Sequence record: PZ452578.1
Source: a phage
DNA: 64,000 nucleotides
Direction: 5' to 3' (one strand)
The position numbers and the translations under genes were made by a program. A model generated the notes under the pieces. That model saw nothing but the letters and a program-made list of their open reading frames with translations. It did not search any database and had not been told where the DNA came from. This document shows, piece after piece, positions 606 to 46,786 of the stretch (position 1 is the first letter of the stretch; every line of letters starts with the position of its first letter).

Positions 606-1241
606 TCACAGTTCAGATGCTACAGTGATTACTGCTTCAATGTTTTCTGCCGAGCGTTTAATGTCAAGATACACATTACCGTTTTTAGCGATTTTACATG
701 ACATTCCGATGTCAGTAAATTTCTGAATATGATGTTCCATCATTTTGTATCCAAAAATTCGCATATTTCCATTGTTGTTAATTTCAAAATTACGAATTCC
801 GTGAGTACGTTTTTCTAAAATAGCGAGATAGTTACTACGATAAGTTTCAACCTTTTTAAGAACAAATCCATTTTCATCTAAAAGTTTTAACATGAAGTCT
901 TTATCTTCTTCCATATCAGAAGTAATCTCACGAGCTTTACGAGTTGCTCGTTTTTTCAGTAGTTCCGGAGCATTTTCCTGTGCGTATAAAGTTGCTGCGT
1001 TTGAAATAATATCCTGAGCTTCACCAGTAATGATTAATCCATCACCAGATTTCTCCACCAGGCCTTTTTTAATCAATACCCCAATATTACTATTAACTAC
1101 TGCGTTACCTAAATCTGGATGCACCTCACGAACTTCTGCAGCTGTAATGAAATCTTTCTTAGCAATGGTAATTAAAATCGCAGCAGTTTTTTCATTCAGA
1201 ACATCGTTAGAAGCTTTGATGATGTAAGTTACTTTAGACAT
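606..1241 (-). CDS. motA: MotA, activator of middle transcription
   Basis: ORF track 211 aa; N-terminus MSKVTYIIKASNDVLNEK and length match T4 MotA as recalled. Confidence 0.9.
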   Translation of the reverse strand: MSKVTYIIKASNDVLNEKTAAILITIAKKDFITAAEVREVHPDLGNAVVNSNIGVLIKKGLVEKSGDGLIITGEAQDIISNAATLYAQENAPELLKKRATRKAREITSDMEEDKDFMLKLLDENGFVLKKVETYRSNYLAILEKRTHGIRNFEINNNGNMRIFGYKMMEHHIQKFTDIGMSCKIAKNGNVYLDIKRSAENIEAVITVASEL

Positions 1242-3319: not shown

Positions 3320-3335
3320 GGCGTCCGAAGACGCC
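3320..3335 (-). other. Stable RNA hairpin with UUCG tetraloop directly upstream of an RBS (no U-tract)
   Basis: Inverted repeat ggcgtc-cgaa-gacgcc on plus strand. Confidence 0.5.
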
Positions 3336-5125: not shown

Positions 5126-5683
5126 TTAAATGGAAAGATACCATCCATTGTAGTTGCTTTTTCTTACAACCTTACGAAGGTCTTCTCTATCACCGATGAA
5201 TTTCGGAGTGTACTGGATGACACCTGGATGAATTTCTTTAGTGTTGAATATAATTATACAGTCAGCGACTTGATGATTTAGAATGGGCCCTAGATTTATT
5301 CCAGAACCATATGGATATTCTCCGCTGCATCCGGTTGTTACCGAAATCCATCGTGAGTCAGTTTGATGTGTTTTGACTTCTACACGAAGCCCACAGTATT
5401 TTGGATGCGCCAATACATCCCATGCATATGTGTACGGATCATCGACATCTTCTTGACCTTTATTAACATACCCGCTTAACCAATCTGCTACAAAAAACTC
5501 TGCGTACACAGCGATACGACATCTTTCGATAACTTCTGCCTTATCCTGGTTCGGGTTTTGTTTTAAAGAGTATCTTGCTGTATCAGCAATTTTGACTTTC
5601 ATTTCACTAGTCAAGTCACTGTTCGATAGGGTAAATGTCGGAATCTGAAATAGTCTCTGTAGCCCCGGATTCGTTTTCTGCAT
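5126..5683 (-). CDS. denB: DenB endonuclease IV
   Basis: ORF track 185 aa; position between ndd and rIIB and length match T4 denB. Confidence 0.8.
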   Translation of the reverse strand: MQKTNPGLQRLFQIPTFTLSNSDLTSEMKVKIADTARYSLKQNPNQDKAEVIERCRIAVYAEFFVADWLSGYVNKGQEDVDDPYTYAWDVLAHPKYCGLRVEVKTHQTDSRWISVTTGCSGEYPYGSGINLGPILNHQVADCIIIFNTKEIHPGVIQYTPKFIGDREDLRKVVRKSNYNGWYLSI

Positions 5684-5739: not shown

Positions 5740-5765
5740 AAAACAAAAGGGCCGAAGCCCTTATT
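5740..5765 (-). terminator. Intrinsic terminator, CUUCGG hairpin followed by U-rich tract
   Basis: aagggc-cgaa-gccctt inverted repeat 5747-5762. Confidence 0.6.
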
Positions 5766-5960: not shown

Positions 5961-5974
5961 AATTTTCCTTAGTT

Positions 5975-5990
5975 AAGGGCCGAAGCCCTT
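5975..5990 (-). other. CUUCGG RNA hairpin at rIIB 3' end
   Basis: aagggccgaagccctt inverted repeat. Confidence 0.5.
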
Positions 5991-6927
5991 ATTTAAATTG
6001 TTCAGTAACGTCTTCAACTACTTCGTATTGGCAGGTACGCATTTTAGCATCGTTGTAATCAATCGGAATTGATACTACATCACGCGGATGTACTTTAACT
6101 TTTACAACTCGGCTAGTTGAACTGCCAAAGTGACGAATATAAGATTTAGAACACACGTGCAGACCACGAGAACAAGTTTGTGTATCATCGTCATTCACAC
6201 GAGTACGTGGCATTTTAACTACTTTACCAGGACTGTTATCAAAGGTATTTGAGTGGCAGTCAAAGTAATTGCTGCGAACTACTTTCCAAGCATAGAAGTA
6301 ACCATCTTCTGTAATTTCAATATCATTTGCTACCAAGAAATCAAAGAGTCGAGATACCGCTTTTTGGCTTGGGTTTTCCAACAGATTTTCCAAGAACGGA
6401 AAATAAAATTCAAAGTTTTCACCTTTTTCCATCGAGTCAAGAATACGATCAACCAAACCAGACCGCAATTCAATATTTTGATAGAACAAGCTTCCACCTT
6501 CAATTCGAACATCGCCGGAAATATATTTTTCAACAGCGCGACGAACATTAATTTTTTGTGCCGCTTCTTCCAACTTATCTGCTACGAGCAGATTAAGAAT
6601 TTCCTGGAAGTTTGAATGAGTATTAGGAGTTGCGTTATAAGTTACGCCATCAACAGTAATTGAAATGAATTTTTTAGATGCATTCCAAATAATGTCAGAT
6701 TTAGCAACTGGAGCAATAACTGCATCGCTATTAACTTTAACTGTAATATCACCGCTAATAGTAACTTTAGGGTGTTTAGCTTCTTCAGCATTTTTCAAAA
6801 CACGACGGATTGTGTCAACCGATACACCTTGCCAATCAGCCAATTCCTGTTGGGTGTAATTACCACTTGAATACAGTTTAACAATTTCAGCTTGTTCGTT
6901 TTTGGTCAGGCATTTAATATTGTACAT
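5989..6927 (-). CDS. rIIB: rIIB protein
   Basis: ORF track 312 aa; matches T4 rIIB length and N-terminus MYNIKCLTKNEQAEIVK. Confidence 0.9.
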   Translation of the reverse strand: MYNIKCLTKNEQAEIVKLYSSGNYTQQELADWQGVSVDTIRRVLKNAEEAKHPKVTISGDITVKVNSDAVIAPVAKSDIIWNASKKFISITVDGVTYNATPNTHSNFQEILNLLVADKLEEAAQKINVRRAVEKYISGDVRIEGGSLFYQNIELRSGLVDRILDSMEKGENFEFYFPFLENLLENPSQKAVSRLFDFLVANDIEITEDGYFYAWKVVRSNYFDCHSNTFDNSPGKVVKMPRTRVNDDDTQTCSRGLHVCSKSYIRHFGSSTSRVVKVKVHPRDVVSIPIDYNDAKMRTCQYEVVEDVTEQFK

Positions 6928-11202: not shown

Positions 11203-11229
11203 CACTTATCCTCGTTTGGTTTCGGGAAT

Positions 11230-11255
11230 ATTATACTCCGGTAATCATAAAGCTA
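11230..11255 (-). promoter_or_regulatory. Candidate MotA-dependent middle promoter (aGCTTTA box, 12-bp gap, TATAAT) upstream of gene 39
   Basis: Reverse complement reads TAGCTTTATgattaccggagTATAAT. Confidence 0.45.
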
Positions 11256-11273
11256 AAGGCCCGAAGGCCTTTT
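11256..11273 (-). other. CUUCGG RNA hairpin (possible terminator/processing site)
   Basis: aaaggcc-cgaa-ggccttt inverted repeat. Confidence 0.5.
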
Positions 11274-11541
11274 ATTTAAAACGAATAGTTGAATCCTTAA
11301 AGAACAGCCCAGAACATACTGTTCCTTCTACTTTCTGCCCGGTAGGTCCAATAGCACGAAATCCAGTATGCTGGAAATCATTTTCAGAGCAACCGAACCA
11401 ATTATATCCAGTGATTTCAATATTAGTAAAACCACTTGAAGACAAAACTTTAGTTGCATTATCAGCATCAGTACATCCTACTAAAGACACTGCTAATACT
11501 AATGCTGCGATAGAACGATTAATATATTTCATAATTTTCAC
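11272..11541 (-). CDS. putative lipoprotein (89 aa; signal peptide with LVGC lipobox)
   Basis: ORF track; N-terminal hydrophobic segment then Cys. Confidence 0.65.
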   Translation of the reverse strand: MKIMKYINRSIAALVLAVSLVGCTDADNATKVLSSSGFTNIEITGYNWFGCSENDFQHTGFRAIGPTGQKVEGTVCSGLFFKDSTIRFK

Positions 11542-15718: not shown

Positions 15719-15956
15719 AAAGATAGCTAATTTCGCCTAAAACATAATCATTAATTGTAACAGTTTTCACTTCACCGCAAAAGAATTCTAACGCAATTAA
15801 ATCTCGTTCAATTTCTTCTAATTGAAGCATCAACTTACTAGATTCAATTTTTACAGTTTCACGATTTTTACCATGAGCAATTTCATAAATTTCGCTAACT
15901 TTATCCTGAAGAAGATAAAACTGATCTTTAGTTATTTCCACGAATAGCTTCCTCAA
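15696..15956 (-). CDS. hypothetical protein (86 aa)
   Basis: ORF track; shares N-terminal MR[RK]L and DY[TV][VL]G motifs with the 15461 ORF. Confidence 0.6.
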   Translation of the reverse strand: MRKLFVEITKDQFYLLQDKVSEIYEIAHGKNRETVKIESSKLMLQLEEIERDLIALEFFCGEVKTVTINDYVLGEISYLYEAIIND

Positions 15957-16188
15957 ATTTAATTAGTAATTTACAGACACTTTCATCTAGTGTAATTACC
16001 GTATCTGTATTACTGTGATATGATTGTTTTTCAATTCGTTTAATTGCTAATATAGTATCACTTATAAGATAAAGCTTATGAAGGAGCTCAGCTCCTGTTA
16101 CCATAACATTAAGATTATCTTGCTTATTAGTATGCTTCCTTATACCATCTATTAGACGATTTAAATATTTTGAATTGATGTTAATCAT
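15928..16188 (-). CDS. hypothetical protein (86 aa)
   Basis: ORF track. Confidence 0.6.
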   Translation of the reverse strand: MININSKYLNRLIDGIRKHTNKQDNLNVMVTGAELLHKLYLISDTILAIKRIEKQSYHSNTDTVITLDESVCKLLIKFEEAIRGNN

Positions 16189-22071: not shown

Positions 22072-22102
22072 AATGAAAAAAGGACTCCCGAAGGAGTCCT
22101 TG
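22072..22102 (-). terminator. Intrinsic terminator after soc (CUUCGG hairpin + U-run)
   Basis: aaggactcc-cgaa-ggagtcctt 22080-22101 with A-run 22075-22080 on plus. Confidence 0.7.
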
Positions 22103-28034: not shown

Positions 28035-28379
28035 TTAAAAGAATTTAAATTTTTTCTTTGACCTTTTATTAAATGCATCTTGTAGTTGCATTGTAATACA
28101 TTTTTCTACATGAGGAGCTAACTCAGCTTTTCTTTCTTGGTCAAGAACAGCAAAGTCCATTACAACCTTTCCATCAACCCAATCTAATTTTGTCACATAC
28201 ACTATATGTGTAGAACCATCTTCTAGTTTAATGATAATCTCCTGGATAACATTTTCCATAGCGGATTTAATTATCTTAAGAGATTCATTAAAAAGACGTT
28301 CTTTTCTTTCTTCTTCCCCCTCCGAAGAGGGGGATTCATCGATAATTTCTAGGTCTAAATCTAAATCATCTTTATTCAT
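28035..28379 (-). CDS. 40: gp40-position protein (~114 aa from internal ATG)
   Basis: ORF track; position between 41 and uvsX. Confidence 0.6.
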   Translation of the reverse strand: MNKDDLDLDLEIIDESPSSEGEEERKERLFNESLKIIKSAMENVIQEIIIKLEDGSTHIVYVTKLDWVDGKVVMDFAVLDQERKAELAPHVEKCITMQLQDAFNKRSKKKFKFF

Positions 28380-34914: not shown

Positions 34915-34938
34915 TCTTGATATATTATACTCCAAATA

Positions 34939-34955
34939 AGGGGCCGAAGCCCCTT
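34939..34955 (-). other. CUUCGG RNA hairpin
   Basis: aaggggc-cgaa-gcccctt inverted repeat. Confidence 0.5.
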
Positions 34956-36115: not shown

Positions 36116-37075
36116 TCACTTCCACTGCATTTCACATGCTAACTGAATGAAAAGATAAGCTAGATGCAATTCAGTATTAGCTGCAATACCATGATACTGA
36201 TTATTTTCGCCGACAATTTCGTACATACGAATAATACTCTGTGGAGTTACACGTGAATAAATTTCTTCGGCAAGTTTACCCACGAACCACGAATAATCGG
36301 CTGCATATTTTGGTGCTAAAGCTCTGAGTTGTTTAACATCTTTATTTTTGAGAGACTCAAGAACATCATCAATAGCACCACGATCGTTAGTAACCAGTGA
36401 TAAAATACCAGCATCCAAAACACCTTTAGATGAATAACTATCGAGCTCGCCAATAGTTTTACGAAAATCAGGAAAATTCTTTTTAACCAAAGCTGCTACA
36501 ACTTTCATATCAGCTATAGCAATTCCTTCATGCTTACAGATTTCAGTCAACCGACGAATCATCTGCTTCATCATTTCAATTTTATCTTCATCGGTCGGTT
36601 GACCGAATGTAATAACTCGGCAGCGTGACTGAAGCGGTTTAATAATACCATCAATATTGTTAGCAGTAATAATAATACTACAGTTTGAACTATAAGCTTC
36701 CATAAAGGAACGAAGATGTCGCTGAGACTCTGCTAGCCCTGAACGGTCAAATTCATCAATAACGATTACTTTTTGACGACCATCAAATGAAGCTGCACTG
36801 GCAAAATTAGTCAAAGGACCACGAACGAAATCAATTTTACAATCTGATCCATTCACAAACATCATATCAGCATTTACATCATGACACAATGCTTTTGCTA
36901 CAGTTGTTTTACCTGTTCCTGGAGAAGGAGAATGAAGAATAATATGTGGAATCTTACCTTTACTTGTAATAGATTTAAAGGTTTCTTTATCAAAGGCGGG
37001 AAGAATACATTCATCGATAGTAGATGGACGATATTTCTGTTCAAGAATGTGTTCTTTTTCATTTACGGTAATCAT
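36116..37075 (-). CDS. 44: gp44 clamp-loader ATPase (AAA+)
   Basis: Internal [20 protein letters not shown] gives 319 aa as in T4; Walker A GTGKTT. Confidence 0.9.
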
Positions 37076-37107
37076 AATTTCCTCATTCAAGTTTTAGTGT
37101 AAATTAT

Positions 37108-37126
37108 AAAGGGCCGAAGCCCTTTA
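37108..37126 (-). other. CUUCGG RNA hairpin between genes 45 and 44
   Basis: aaagggc-cgaa-gcccttt inverted repeat. Confidence 0.5.
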
Positions 37127-37813
37127 TTAAAAATCGTGGGTAGAATCAGCTTCAAGAGCTACTACATAATTCGCATGTTCACCTTCAAATTTAGCAGCGC
37201 CTTGTTTACCTTTTGCCCAGAGCAGAAGTTTATAATTTCCTGGTTGCATTTTCATATTTGCCATATTGATAATGAAATTAAATGTATTTTCACCATCATA
37301 ATCACCAAGAGTCAAAGAATATTTAACACGGGTCAGAGCAGAATCTTCTACTTTATTAAAACCGTTAATTACGATTTTACCTTCTTTTACCGTGATAGCA
37401 ATTGTATCAATTTGCAGACCACGAGATACACGCAACAGTTGTTGAAGGTCTTCAGCTTTAATTTCAGTAACAACAGATGCTACCGGGAATGGAATTGGTT
37501 TATTAGGAGCAACTACTGTACTCGGATCGGCTGCTGGCCAAAAAATTGTTGAGCGGGCATCAGCAATTTTAATATTTCCATCTTCTGACTGGGAAATTTC
37601 TGCATCATCATTAACTAGAGACAGAATACCGAGAAAACCGTTCAAATCGTAAATTGCTACATCAAAATCAATAACGTCAGAAATATTTGCTTCCGCATAA
37701 GTTGTACCATTAACTGCGCGAGTCATAATAAATTGACCGGATTTAAGCATAATACCAGAGTTAATAGTAGCGAAATTTTTAAGCAGAGCAGTAGTATCTT
37801 TAGACAGTTTCAT
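37127..37813 (-). CDS. 45: gp45 sliding clamp
   Basis: ORF track 228 aa; matches T4 gp45. Confidence 0.95.
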   Translation of the reverse strand: MKLSKDTTALLKNFATINSGIMLKSGQFIMTRAVNGTTYAEANISDVIDFDVAIYDLNGFLGILSLVNDDAEISQSEDGNIKIADARSTIFWPAADPSTVVAPNKPIPFPVASVVTEIKAEDLQQLLRVSRGLQIDTIAITVKEGKIVINGFNKVEDSALTRVKYSLTLGDYDGENTFNFIINMANMKMQPGNYKLLLWAKGKQGAAKFEGEHANYVVALEADSTHDF

Positions 37814-38510: not shown

Positions 38511-39227
38511 ATGAATTATAAACTAATTTATGAAAAGTTAATCTCTAATGCTAAATCTCGAAAACTTGATTGCTATACTGAATCTCATCACATTATACCG
38601 CGCTGTTTAAATGGAAGTGATGATGCTTCAAACTTAGTAGATTTAACACCAGAAGAGCACTATGTAGCTCATCAACTTTTAGTAAAAATTTATCCTTCTG
38701 AACCAAAATTAGTCTATGCTGCTAACATGATGACAGTTTCTACGAAATACGCTAAACGCAACAATAAAACTTTCGGTTGGATTCGTCGTAAACTCTGGGA
38801 AATAGAAAAGAACAAAGAATTCTCCCAGGAGACACGAAAGAAAATGTCTGATGCAGTAGCTAATAAAGCAAGACTAACTTGTCCTCATTGCGGTAAGTCT
38901 GGATTAAGCGGGAATATGAATCGTTGGCATTTTGATAACTGCCCAAATCACCCTAATCCTAAAGTTAGACCACCAATGTCTAAAGAACACAGAAATAATA
39001 TCTCAAACGGGCTTAAAGCAATCGTTCTTGAAGAAACATCCTGCGAATTCTGCGGAATGATAGGCAAGAAATGCGTTATCGCAGCGCATAGAAATTTCTG
39101 CAAGAAAAATCCAAATGGACGCAAGAAAACTGAAAAGACTGGTACTTGCGTCCATTGCGGTAAAGTTACCACTTTCGGAAATTTATCAAGGTGGCATAAT
39201 GATAACTGTAAATATAAACCTAGCTAA
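38511..39227 (+). CDS. HNH homing endonuclease (mob-like) with Cys-rich C-terminal DNA-binding repeats
   Basis: ORF track 238 aa on plus strand; HNH motif ESHHIIPRCLNGSDDASNLVDLTPEEHYVAH; absent from this position in T4. Confidence 0.8.
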   Translation: MNYKLIYEKLISNAKSRKLDCYTESHHIIPRCLNGSDDASNLVDLTPEEHYVAHQLLVKIYPSEPKLVYAANMMTVSTKYAKRNNKTFGWIRRKLWEIEKNKEFSQETRKKMSDAVANKARLTCPHCGKSGLSGNMNRWHFDNCPNHPNPKVRPPMSKEHRNNISNGLKAIVLEETSCEFCGMIGKKCVIAAHRNFCKKNPNGRKKTEKTGTCVHCGKVTTFGNLSRWHNDNCKYKPS

Positions 39228-41168: not shown

Positions 41169-41355
41169 TATCTAAAATGTTGAAGTTAAAAGATACGGCC
41201 CAATCAGTGCAGACCGTAACCTTTTTAATACAATTATCTTCAACCTCTAGTGGTTCAAACCAATATTCAATAATTTCTTTATGCCCAATATCATCTTTTA
41301 CTTCACATTCAAAATGCTGACTCATCATAACATTTTTAAATTCATCAAAAGTCAT
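41092..41355 (-). CDS. hypothetical protein (87 aa)
   Basis: ORF track. Confidence 0.55.
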   Translation of the reverse strand: MTFDEFKNVMMSQHFECEVKDDIGHKEIIEYWFEPLEVEDNCIKKVTVCTDWAVSFNFNILDNDTPKSLQDMAVSCIKDAYCEVFDI

Positions 41356-42371
41356 TGTGTTGCCTCTACATATAACTGATTTGCATATTGAATAAGTGCT
41401 TCGCGATCAGAATCAGTGATGTCTGGAATTGCATTAATGTATTCTTCCATCAATGTCTGAAGAGATTGAACTTCAACTTCTTCACTGTCATCTGACTCGA
41501 CAGAGTTATCAATCTTTGACACAACTCGTAATGAATGCACAACTTTTTCTAGTTCAGATTCGAACTTCGTTAGATTTTTGTCTACTTCAGTTACTATAAC
41601 ACGTACTGATAGATTTGTAAAATCTTTATAGTCAATTTTTCCTTTAAATGGATAATGAATTCTACGATGCCAGGTAGTATTGTTTGGAATAAATTCCATT
41701 CGTTCTGTTTCTGTATCAAACATCCAGAACCCGCGAGGGTCATTCTCGTCACCTGCTGTTAGTGTCCATGGTGTCCCAATATATCTGACGTTTGCAGCCT
41801 CAGAAATAGTATGGAAGTGACCAGACCACACTTCTTTATAAGTCTTAAGGAAATCAGGTTCAAGACCGTGAGATTTCATTCCTTTATAAAAATAAAATCC
41901 ATTCAGTTCCCAGTGACCAACACAAAAAGAAGCAGATGAAGTTTTGATGTGTTCAAGAATTTCACCAGTATTTTCTTCACACATCCAAGGAATTAAATCA
42001 ATCAAACATCCGTCAAAATCTACTGTAGTAGGCTTATCATATACTTTAACATTAGGATATTTAGCCAAAAGCTCAGTAGAAGCATTTGGATGCATTACAT
42101 TTTTATAGTGGAGATCGTGATTTCCTACAATAGTATGTAATGTGATTCCAGCGTCGTCAAGCATTTGAACTATTTCACGGGCAAACTCCATAGTTTTATG
42201 CGTGATCGCTTTTCGTACATCAAAAATATCACCATATTGAATCCATACAGTAATTCCATTTTTCTTAGAATATTCTATCGCTTGCTTAATTCCATCAATT
42301 TGAATACCGCGAATCCACTCATCATCGGCTTTAACGCCTAAATGCCAATCACCCAAGTTTAGTATTTTCAT
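41352..42371 (-). CDS. 47: gp47 recombination nuclease subunit (Mre11/SbcD-like)
   Basis: ORF track 339 aa; phosphoesterase motifs GDWHLG, GNHD. Confidence 0.9.
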   Translation of the reverse strand: MKILNLGDWHLGVKADDEWIRGIQIDGIKQAIEYSKKNGITVWIQYGDIFDVRKAITHKTMEFAREIVQMLDDAGITLHTIVGNHDLHYKNVMHPNASTELLAKYPNVKVYDKPTTVDFDGCLIDLIPWMCEENTGEILEHIKTSSASFCVGHWELNGFYFYKGMKSHGLEPDFLKTYKEVWSGHFHTISEAANVRYIGTPWTLTAGDENDPRGFWMFDTETERMEFIPNNTTWHRRIHYPFKGKIDYKDFTNLSVRVIVTEVDKNLTKFESELEKVVHSLRVVSKIDNSVESDDSEEVEVQSLQTLMEEYINAIPDITDSDREALIQYANQLYVEATQ

Positions 42372-42972
42372 GGTGTCTTTTCCATCCTAATTTAGCTGCT
42401 TTTGAAACTAGTTCTTTAATTTTTCCTTTTGTCCATTCAGGACCAGGAGGTTCATGACATAACATTTGCTTAACTCCGTTATTATACCATTTTTTACCTT
42501 TATTATGTGATGAAGCTTTAAATTTATTTGACCTTCCTTTTACATAACCTTCTGGAATATACGGTAAAAAGGCAGATTTTCCTGTTAATGGGTCATGTGA
42601 ATGTATGTTTCCTTTACAATTATGAGAACCATATAATGGATGATTTTGTCCTTTAATATCTCTTCCAAATGAACCTTTTGGAGCAGCATATGACATATTA
42701 AAGAATAATGGATTTTTAACCGCATCATGCAAACGTTGATAATATAGCTCGCATTTAATAGCTTCTTCGCGCGTATCAAATTCATCTAAAATGCATGAAT
42801 CAAATAAATGTGGGTTATCTGAAAGTTCTTCATTATAAATTTTCTTATACTTTTTAGATAAAACTGATCCATGATATCCGGCTAAATGCCTATCTAAAGA
42901 TGTAGATCCAATATAAAAAGGAGGAAGTTTATCTCCACTATATATTGTTAAATAAGTTATATATTTTTTCAT
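42349..42972 (-). CDS. GIY-YIG homing endonuclease (seg-like)
   Basis: ORF track 207 aa; N-terminal YITYLTIYSGD...FYIGSTS motif; 3' end overlaps gene 47 start. Confidence 0.7.
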   Translation of the reverse strand: MKKYITYLTIYSGDKLPPFYIGSTSLDRHLAGYHGSVLSKKYKKIYNEELSDNPHLFDSCILDEFDTREEAIKCELYYQRLHDAVKNPLFFNMSYAAPKGSFGRDIKGQNHPLYGSHNCKGNIHSHDPLTGKSAFLPYIPEGYVKGRSNKFKASSHNKGKKWYNNGVKQMLCHEPPGPEWTKGKIKELVSKAAKLGWKRHHENTKLG

Positions 42973-43109
42973 ATATCAAGAACCGTCATTGAAATGCAAA
43001 ATAAAATTATTGAAATAAATCCATCTGGAGTGCTAAAGAACCCAATCCAACATGCTCTAGTGAATAGATAAAATGCAAGAAAAAGTATCACATATCCAAG
43101 AAATATCAT
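42969..43109 (-). CDS. possible small hydrophobic peptide (46 aa)
   Basis: Own translation MIFLGYVILFLAFYLFTRACWIGFF...; GGAG RBS; stop overlaps endonuclease start. Confidence 0.3.
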   Translation of the reverse strand: MIFLGYVILFLAFYLFTRACWIGFFSTPDGFISIILFCISMTVLDI

Positions 43110-43133
43110 TATATCAAACTCCGTATAAAGCTA
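43108..43133 (-). promoter_or_regulatory. Candidate MotA-dependent middle promoter (aGCTTTA, 12 bp, TATAAT) directly after a CUUCGG hairpin
   Basis: Reverse complement reads AGCTTTATacggagtttgaTATAAT. Confidence 0.45.
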
Positions 43134-43150
43134 AAGGGCCGAAGCCCTTT
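43133..43150 (-). other. CUUCGG RNA hairpin at alpha-gt 3' end
   Basis: aaagggc-cgaa-gcccttt inverted repeat. Confidence 0.5.
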
Positions 43151-44351
43151 ATTTTGTAATAATGTCAAACTGTTCTTTAAAGCAGAAGCTTGAATCTTGA
43201 TGCTGATACAAAAATTCATAAGCTTTTTCGCGTTCACGGTCATAAAGAGTTCGGTTAGATGACAGTTCTTTAATACGTTCAAATGTTGATTCCATGTCAT
43301 TTTCATCAAACCAAATGATACCGCTATCATGCGAAGTCAAAGGAGTATTATCAACACGGAATTTTAAATTTTCGCCCGTAGATTTCCAAAATACCGGAAT
43401 TGTTCCACATGCACCAAGCTCGAGATGAGTATATTCTAAAGAACGTTGTAGATATTTTTTGTCCAACTTACTCAGCTGATAACCAAAACCGGATTTACTC
43501 ATACGTTCAAGCATTTCGCTATTTACATAACGGTCAAGAATTTGCGTTGGCAAATTAGGAGCAATTTTAATTTGGTCTACTTGATGAAGACGATAATACT
43601 CGTATGGAATTCCTTTTTCTTTAATAGGAATGAACGCTGGAGAACGTTCCAGACCTTCCATAATAGTACTTAGTCCTGCAGGTTTAAGATATTTTTCATG
43701 AAAATCAAACATCTGATAAAAACCTTTCCATGTAGTCGTACGACCAATCCAACGGTTGATATTCATGTTAATTTCAGAAACATCTTTCCAGTAGGTTGAC
43801 CGAACCTTCGCAATATCCATAGGAGGCTGAAAGTTATATACGGTCGGTGCTTCTTCAATATCATCAAACAGAGAAACTGTTTCAGGATACCATTCTTTCA
43901 TCAGAACTTTATTAAAATCGCCATTATCAGAATGACTAAAAATAACATCAGCTCGACGAACAGTTTCTTCTAATCCCAAATTTCGACGCAAAGAAAGAGA
44001 AGAATGGTCATGTTGATAAACTACAACACGAACAGAAGGTTTAATATTATCAATAATTTTTTTATAGTTATTAATGGTGTCTTCTTCTACTGAAGTAGCA
44101 GGAACTGAATTGATAATTAGAATATCACAATCATTTACCAGCTTAAGTGTTTTATCGTATTCTTTTGCCAATAAAACTGGAATTGAAAATGACTTATAAT
44201 CATGCGCGCAATTACGAGTAAATGATTTATCTTTAGCATAAACCAAAATTACTTCATGACCATTTTTAATAAACCAATCACGTTGCTCGAGTGAGAATTT
44301 TGTTACACCACAACCTTCAAGACCTCGAGCCATAAAAATACATACTTTCAT
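43149..44351 (-). CDS. a-gt: alpha-glucosyltransferase (HMC-DNA)
   Basis: ORF track 400 aa; N-terminus MKVCIFMARGLEGCGVTKFSLEQ matches T4 a-gt. Confidence 0.9.
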   Translation of the reverse strand: MKVCIFMARGLEGCGVTKFSLEQRDWFIKNGHEVILVYAKDKSFTRNCAHDYKSFSIPVLLAKEYDKTLKLVNDCDILIINSVPATSVEEDTINNYKKIIDNIKPSVRVVVYQHDHSSLSLRRNLGLEETVRRADVIFSHSDNGDFNKVLMKEWYPETVSLFDDIEEAPTVYNFQPPMDIAKVRSTYWKDVSEINMNINRWIGRTTTWKGFYQMFDFHEKYLKPAGLSTIMEGLERSPAFIPIKEKGIPYEYYRLHQVDQIKIAPNLPTQILDRYVNSEMLERMSKSGFGYQLSKLDKKYLQRSLEYTHLELGACGTIPVFWKSTGENLKFRVDNTPLTSHDSGIIWFDENDMESTFERIKELSSNRTLYDREREKAYEFLYQHQDSSFCFKEQFDIITK

Positions 44352-44401
44352 TTAATATCCTCATTGTTTTGGTTTATTTTACCAAAAATTTATAAAGCAA
44401 T

Positions 44402-44419
44402 ATAGGAGCCGAAGCTCCT
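44402..44419 (-). other. CUUCGG RNA hairpin
   Basis: taggagc-cgaa-gctccta inverted repeat. Confidence 0.45.
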
Positions 44420-44591
44420 ATCCGCATAATACACCGTATAGAGGCTCATTAGAGCTTCTAAATTTTATACGCTTATATGTTATAGTTCCTTCTGCTTTAG
44501 CTTTATCATGAGACTCTTTAAAGCGTCTCATCATTTCTACTTTAGAGGAACGAATTTTATTATCTACTTCAAAAGTCTGGATGTTCATCTT

Positions 44592-46761: not shown

Positions 46762-46786
46762 TATCCAAAAAGGGCCGAAGCCCTTA
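46762..46786 (-). terminator. Intrinsic terminator (CUUCGG hairpin + UUUUU)
   Basis: aaagggc-cgaa-gccctt with A-run 46767-46771 on plus. Confidence 0.65.

Follow-up and report, generated by a model that had tools for sequence, protein, structure and literature searches.

Putative transcription-unit junctions at P39 and P47 of a T4-like phage, with a CUUCGG hairpin set directly against the MotA box

At two places in the phage DNA analysed here (sequence record PZ452578.1, a stretch of 64,000 nt, hereafter the window), a CUUCGG hairpin runs directly into a promoter-like string that ends in TATAAT. Site 1 lies upstream of gene 39, and site 2 lies between a-gt and 47.1. The initial annotation took the two for copies of a terminator/middle-promoter cassette, which raises the question of what these elements do and why they look so much alike. 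The arrangement of hairpin, box and TATAAT was confirmed at both sites, on the minus strand and with the hairpin overlapping the upstream stop codon (Table 1). The assignment of site 1 to the region upstream of gene 39 was right; the GIY-YIG gene named for site 2 is not immediately downstream of it, since 47.1 comes first and is followed by the endonuclease-like ORF.

Promoter identity of the two sites

The window comes from a T4-like Tequatrovirus, with ~ 98–99% identity to phages VEc74 and RB3 around site 1 and similar matches for site 2. It represents another Tequatrovirus isolate, which differs from T4 in that P47 is followed also by an endonuclease-like ORF that is absent from T4. The published consensus for middle promoters is (a/t)(a/t)(a/t)TGCTTtA, a spacer of 12 ± 1 bp and TAtaaT, and single-base deviations from the MotA-box consensus are tolerated (PMC2988021). 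At both sites the box TTTAGCTTTA agrees with the consensus in 9 of 10 positions, having A for T at position 4, before GCTT, as in T4. TATAAT follows exactly 12 bp past the box, which is the canonical spacing.

The T4 GenBank record, AF158101, contains no promoter or terminator features, and the T4 promoter positions were taken from the published start-site table (PMC2988021). There, the P39 start is given as 5349 (Table 1, attributed to Guild et al. 1988) and the P47 start as 36576 (Guild et al. 1988, Hsu & Karam 1990). Both fall exactly 7 nt past the last T of the respective TATAAT, which puts the window starts at 11223 and 43101. From hairpin to start codon, the sequences at T4 P39 and P47 are identical to those at the two window sites, including the MotA box, the 12-bp spacer and TATAAT. 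The gene 39 ATG is 21 nt from the inferred P39 start in the window, and in the T4 record the ATGs of gene 39 and 47.1 are at 5328 and 36584, respectively. The gene for the activator that reads MotA boxes, motA, is present in the window, and asiA is expected just beyond the window edge by synteny with T4.

Judged by sequence identity, sites 1 and 2 are the T4 middle promoters P39 and P47. The middle-promoter part of the initial annotation is thus well founded, as the sites match listed MotA-dependent promoters of T4 and motA is in the window. Because the sites are identical to mapped P39 and P47, the promoter half of the finding is a rediscovery; these promoters have been known since 1988–1990, and the finding is real but ordinary. 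It does settle the annotation of three middle promoters in this unannotated T4-like genome (P39, P47 and the one of a-gt), shows where the P43 hairpin lies, and indicates that real regulatory junctions are recognisable from raw sequence alone.

Table 1. Features at and around the hairpin-promoter junctions (window coordinates)
Feature	Position	Strand	Details or basis
Site 1 (P39)			
39.1-like ORF stop codon TAA	11274-11272	minus (= coding strand)	
CUUCGG hairpin AAAGGCC-UUCG-GGCCUUU (DNA: TTCG)	11255..11272	minus	sequence, fold, identity in T4
MotA box TTTAGCTTTA, -34 to -25	11248..11257	minus	9/10 consensus positions
Spacer, 12 nt, box to -10	11247-11236	minus	
Sigma-70 -10 element TATAAT, 12 bp past MotA box	11230..11235	minus	
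Inferred P39 transcription start (G)	11223	minus	7 nt past -10; T4 identity and T4 start
Gene 39, topoisomerase II large subunit, fused 39+60 form, predicted to be driven by P39	9385..11202	minus	ORF list and relatives' annotation
Site 2 (P47)			
a-gt stop codon TAA	43151-43149	minus	
Hairpin, RNA UAAAGGGC-UUCG-GCCCUUUA, DNA TAAAGGGC-TTCG-GCCCTTTA	43132..43151	minus	
MotA box TTTAGCTTTA	43126..43135	minus	4-nt overlap with hairpin 3' arm
Spacer, 12 nt	43125-43114	minus	
-10 element TATAAT	43108..43113	minus	
Inferred P47 transcription start	43101	minus	8 nt within annotated 47.1 ORF; T4 identity
47.1, first ORF downstream of site 2	42969-43109	minus	
Homing-endonuclease-like ORF, after 47.1	42349-42972	minus	Pfam and PHROG matches
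Gene 47	41352-42371	minus	
Genes downstream of P47 (47.1, endonuclease-like ORF, gene 47)	41352..43109	minus	ORFs, relatives' annotation, Pfam/PHROG
Other loci			
Third abutting copy, upstream of a-gt (T4 PmobB/P-alpha-gt.1)	44376..44421	minus	
Third-copy hairpin, RNA AUAGGAGC-UUCG-GCUCCUAU, DNA ATAGGAGC-TTCG-GCTCCTAT	44421-44402	minus	
Third-copy MotA box TATTGCTTTA	44402-44393	minus	followed by 11-nt spacer
Third-copy -10 TAAAAT	44381-44376	minus	
CUUCGG hairpin within -30 region of T4 P43 middle promoter	34938..34955	minus	T4 P43 start 29933
motA, activator reading MotA boxes	606..1241	minus	Pfam MotA_activ E = 4.7e-61, MotCF E = 9.2e-67

The genes around the two sites show some features of their own. 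Gene 39 encodes ~ 605 aa, without the mobA insertion of T4. It also lacks the bypass hairpin of gene 60, another of the CUUCGG hairpins in T4 (T4 2834–2857). The 39.1-like ORF (11272–11541) has 89 aa here and 86 aa in phages MN04 and VR20, compared to only 65 aa in the T4 annotation, and its PHROG family match covers residues 3–89. A sigma-70 promoter-like match at 11430–11401 was dropped, as it is at chance level and inside this conserved 89-aa ORF. The homing-endonuclease-like ORF (207 aa) lies between 47.1 and gene 47, the start of which it overlaps by 23 nt, and is absent in T4 and T6. Its family labels conflict: the Pfam GIY-YIG match is below threshold (E = 8e-4), and the PHROG family is named "HNH endonuclease".

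At site 2 the 47.1 ATG (43109–43107) begins with the last two bases of TATAAT, such that the annotated start codon overlaps the P47 -10 element (TATAATG; window 43101–43113, T4 36576–36588). Since the mapped T4 P47 start is 8 nt inside 47.1, full-length 47.1 should be translatable from read-through RNAs only. The 47.1 homologue of the Dhakavirus MX01 has its own Shine-Dalgarno sequence and a start ~ 25 nt past the promoter.

Hairpins and their U-rich tails

CUUCGG hairpins are textbook features of T4. The window has 13 such hairpins with at least 4 stem pairs, every one on the coding strand, and 20 of 23 in T4 are on the minus strand. Those at sites 1 and 2 have the UUCG loop, the C-G closing pair and a short, GC-rich Watson-Crick stem, and are intergenic and on the transcribed strand. 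Tuerk et al. 1988 were the first to describe how abundant CUUCGG hairpins are in T4 mRNA (cited in PMC8948821; PMC4371310), and the two hairpins here are simply two members of that C(UUCG)G set, with no difference. Fold energies were -10.7 kcal/mol for site 1 and -11.8 for site 2, compared to -16 for the copy upstream of a-gt and -15.3 for the P43 hairpin. An Rfam scan of the whole window at the gathering threshold gave no match. Five hairpins in the window have an identical 16-mer, AAGGGCTTCGGCCCTT, in common (5747–5762, 5974–5991, 37106–37127, 43132–43151 and 46770–46785).

Alignment of both loci runs gap-free from the stop codon through AGCTTTAT, with ~ 31 nt near-identical, and the stems differ by a single compensated pair (C-G versus G-C). 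The outer flanks and the 12-nt spacers are unrelated. The common sequence therefore does reach past the hairpin, as was originally noticed, and takes in TATAAT as well; TTTAGCTTTAT-N11-TATAAT is exact at both sites. The 12-nt gap first assigned to AGCTTTAT is actually 11 nt, the figure of 12 being counted from the 7-nt core AGCTTTA.

In both cases the 5' arm of the hairpin takes in the TAA of the preceding gene, overlapping the stop codon of the 39.1-like ORF at site 1 and containing that of a-gt at site 2. At the other end, the final three bases of the 3' arm at site 1 are the opening three T of TTTAGCTTTA. The tail after both hairpins is the MotA box itself, which is U-rich but interrupted, UUUAGCUUUAU. 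A simple consensus terminator scan of the coding strand called neither site. A d'Aubenton-Carafa-type score, used for ranking sites only, was negative where the hairpin abuts a MotA box (-13, -14 and -20 at the three sites) and came to +33 and +42 for the hairpins preceding early promoters at 22080 and 60495. Terminators have been called at these positions by the software of other groups, in the annotations of the phages SA20RB, G2469 and DalCa. For example, a rho-independent terminator is annotated at the site 1 hairpin position in DalCa and a terminator upstream of gene 39 also in G2469; in the GenBank record of SA20RB, a close relative, a terminator and a T4-type middle promoter are annotated, overlapping, at each flank of a-gt.

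Because the tail is interrupted in T4-type phages, termination is probably partial there, and from their sequence the site 1 and site 2 hairpins look weak as terminators in these phages. Sequence, fold, identity to the mapped T4 promoters and conservation across genera are observed; that the hairpins terminate transcription, and how efficiently, is inferred. The promoter half of the arrangement is supported and the terminator half is plausible.

Further copies and conservation across genera

A search of the window for extra copies, as the initial annotation had proposed for the genome, turned up a third abutting copy (44376–44421) and a hairpin embedded in a promoter (34938–34955). Had there been just two copies, neither with a MotA-dependent transcript, the initial annotation would have been refuted; there is instead a third abutting copy, T4 PmobB, with its start at 38682 (PMC2988021). 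The hairpin abuts the box in all three, PmobB differing from P39 and P47 by its canonical TGCTTTA box and its GGAGC stem. Because mobB is absent here, the third-copy promoter would drive a-gt directly. The spacer of this a-gt promoter (44382–44392) is 11 nt, compared to 12 nt in T4, with one T fewer in a T-run.

The embedded hairpin belongs to P43, a mapped T4 middle promoter with a related but non-identical arrangement. Its sole GCTT is in the hairpin loop, and TATAAT is 15 nt away after the 6-nt core GCTTCG, compared to the usual 11–13. The gp43 translational-operator hairpin (loop AAUAACUC) is found just downstream of the 34938–34955 hairpin.

All 58 listed T4 middle promoters were placed on the T4 genome. 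Only three of these, P39, P47 and PmobB, have a CUUCGG hairpin directly against the MotA box; at P43 one is found within the -30 region, and at P24.3 one lies ~ 55 nt upstream. A search of T4 for any hairpin abutting a MotA-like box gave no further convincing case. In the window, positions 16052–16098 hold a hairpin AGGAGC-TGA-GCTCCT followed by ATAAGCTTTA-N12-TACTAT, inside an 86-aa ORF (15928–16188). The hairpin-plus-MotA-box scan of T4 returned no equivalent of this arrangement, which may be a middle promoter inside the ORF or a chance match.

The layout upstream of gene 39 (GC hairpin, box, 12 nt, -10) is kept in four other genera of the Tevenvirinae, namely in the Dhakavirus MN04, the Gaprivervirus VR20, the Mosigvirus G2469 and the Kanagawavirus PEi20, where the box directly after the hairpin is TTTTGCTTT(A/T) or TTATGCTTTA. 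The Jiaodavirus JD18 has the box and the -10 element upstream of gene 39, without the hairpin. Upstream of gene 47/47.1, the layout is kept in Dhakavirus (MX01, Bp7), in Karamvirus (CW742) and in one unclassified Klebsiella phage. The stems vary across genera (GGCC, GGGC, GGAGC, GGGCC), and so do the loops (UUCG, UACG, UUAG); the stems were tabulated directly, as a MAFFT alignment of 11 sites put those of unequal length out of register. What is constant is the abutment of hairpin and box and the spacing of 11–12 nt. All the other genera have TGCTTTA; AGCTTTA is found in Tequatroviruses only, at both sites. The orthologous hairpins in the other genera are followed by UUUUUGCUUUA, a good U-tract.

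Since the layout is kept with differing stems and loops, it points to a conserved regulatory architecture and not to a duplicated mobile cassette. On this comparison each junction appears to be an old, orthologously conserved arrangement, of conserved or convergent regulatory design. The likeness of P39 and P47 within T4-type phages would reflect shared constraints, or possibly local concerted change.

These data bear on three other explanations. A duplicated or mobile terminator-plus-promoter cassette, of which the two sites would be copies, spread for example with the neighbouring homing endonuclease gene, would fit their near identity over ~ 31 nt, including the unusual A in AGCTTTA, and site 2 does adjoin the homing-endonuclease-like ORF; as other genera have TGCTTTA at both positions, the common A could also reflect gene conversion. 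However, the flanks and the 12-nt spacers are without similarity, T4 and T6 have an identical site 2 without the endonuclease ORF, and each site has an orthologue, with another stem, at the corresponding junction in distant genera. Each of the 3 viral-contig genomes carrying both junctions has two copies of the exact 20-mer common to sites 1 and 2 (the shorter viral contigs have one), which makes exactly two copies per genome, and function accounts for every common base (stop codon, GC stem, UUCG loop, MotA box, -10). We therefore rejected the mobile or duplicated cassette as very improbable, given the lack of flank homology, the fixed orthologous positions and the two copies per genome; of the cassette first proposed, the promoter stands and the word itself is too strong, with unrelated flanks and spacers and differing orthologous stems. 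A chance meeting of a common hairpin with an A/T-rich promoter-like string, devoid of function, might be suggested by the 33 loose matches to a MotA-box-like string with a -10 in the window, many of them within genes, and by the promoter half alone, for which a 3-mismatch search found 4 where 1.73 were expected. The combined pattern CTTCGG-N7-GCTTNA-N10-14-TANNNT, however, matches sites 1 and 2 only in the window and was found in none of 100 dinucleotide shuffles. Together with the experimentally mapped T4 starts and an architecture kept across genera, this refutes chance juxtaposition, to which we give practically no credence.

The main rival concerns the hairpin alone. The hairpins may be RNA stability elements that block 3' exonucleases and set a stable 3' end after processing, with the promoter merely in the same gap. 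The 3' ends mapped in T4 are thought to mark stable RNA ends and not termination sites (PMC6024815), CUUCGG hairpins combine exceptional stability with a variety of roles in T4 (PMC4371310; PMC8948821 citing Tuerk 1988), and several of those in the window have no U-tract at all, e.g. 3320–3335 and 28315–28334. The weak U-tract at sites 1 and 2 fits this as well. Against it, the same hairpins in other genera have the good U-tract noted above, and poly(U) after a GC-rich stem with a 4-nt loop is how T4 terminators have been described (PMC2988022). Stability and terminator roles are also compatible, and we hold a pure stability role to be possible at well under even odds.

The proposed junction and its counterparts in T4

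We favor, with a probability of roughly 0.85, the reading that the two sites are compact junctions, each joining two transcription units and comprising a MotA/AsiA-dependent middle promoter and an upstream hairpin that acts as a leaky terminator and/or a stable 3' end. At both sites TTTAGCTTTA-N12-TATAAT would be the MotA/AsiA-dependent middle promoter, with the AsiA-remodelled sigma-70 host RNA polymerase on the -10 element and MotA on the box at -30, and transcription would begin 7 nt past TATAAT. P39 would drive topoisomerase gene 39, and P47 would drive 47.1, the endonuclease-like ORF, gene 47 and gene 46. The P39 hairpin spans -49 to -32 relative to the start and should therefore be missing from the middle transcript. 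Being upstream of the start site, such a hairpin would be present solely in RNAs arriving from upstream promoters, forming at the stop codon of the preceding gene. In these RNAs the U-rich stretch after the hairpin would be the transcript of the MotA box, which gives the whole an intrinsic-terminator form, and terminated upstream RNAs would end in a AGCUUUAU tract. The hairpin would then serve as a leaky intrinsic terminator and/or as the stable 3' end of the upstream message, and downstream expression would combine read-through transcripts with MotA-dependent re-initiation.

Published T4 RNA-seq data (PMC6024815 Table S1) can be compared with this scheme. Across the site 1 junction, from goF to gene 39, read density goes from ~ 41 to 32 reads/nt in the wild type and from ~ 101 to 47 in motA-amber, i.e. 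a drop of ~ 22% and ~ 53%, respectively, over an interval that also includes 39.2 and 39.1, such that the drop is not localised to the site 1 hairpin. Across the PmobB junction, from a-gt.2 to mobB, it goes from ~ 20 to 44 reads/nt in the wild type and from ~ 14 to 8 in motA-amber. These densities are steady-state counts from T4 and not from this phage, and very short ORFs (47.1, 39.1), which look under-counted, were excluded from the ratios. Both patterns can be read as partial loss at the hairpin or ahead of it, combined with MotA-dependent re-initiation, and thus lend the scheme rough support. Gene 39 RNA is not lowered in motA-amber (fold change 1.28, PMC6024815 Table S1), and therefore read-through provides much of it. 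Gene 47 RNA falls to 0.15 of wild type (PMC6024815 Table S1); since a-gt and mobB upstream fall by the same factor, P47 is not separable here from upstream MotA-dependent promoters. The text of PMC6024815 describes gp46 and gp47 as near wild-type in motA-amber, and its Table S1 lists fold changes of 0.20 and 0.15.

A putative terminator can be placed tight against a MotA box. The overlap of its tail with the box may even have been selected as a coupled device: with U-tract and box made of the same bases, a single substitution would tune read-through and re-initiation together, and the T-to-A at the same box position at P39 and P47 in Tequatroviruses does interrupt the U-run. Bound MotA/AsiA-polymerase could in addition act as a roadblock and raise termination of incoming early transcripts at middle times, giving a time-dependent switch in place of two independent signals. 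We think such a coupling unlikely. That hairpin and box are kept abutting despite turnover of the stem is a modest argument for a functional, non-accidental overlap. The literature accessible for review contained no description of a coupling between termination and MotA binding, nor any statement of the identity of tail and MotA box or of its conservation across genera. The overlap of tail and box, kept across genera, is a small refinement and not a new kind of system.

The junction role proposed here agrees with the accepted two-pathway model of T4 middle genes, in which read-through and middle promoters both contribute. A counterpart is mobE/nrdB of T4 (PMC2988022), where read-through is held down by a weak intrinsic terminator and transcription of the next essential gene is taken up again from a middle promoter shortly after it, much as we propose for P39 and P47. 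The two cases differ in layout: the mobE/nrdB terminator lies inside mobE, apart from the promoter, whereas at P39 and P47 one and the same stretch forms the putative terminator tail and the MotA box.
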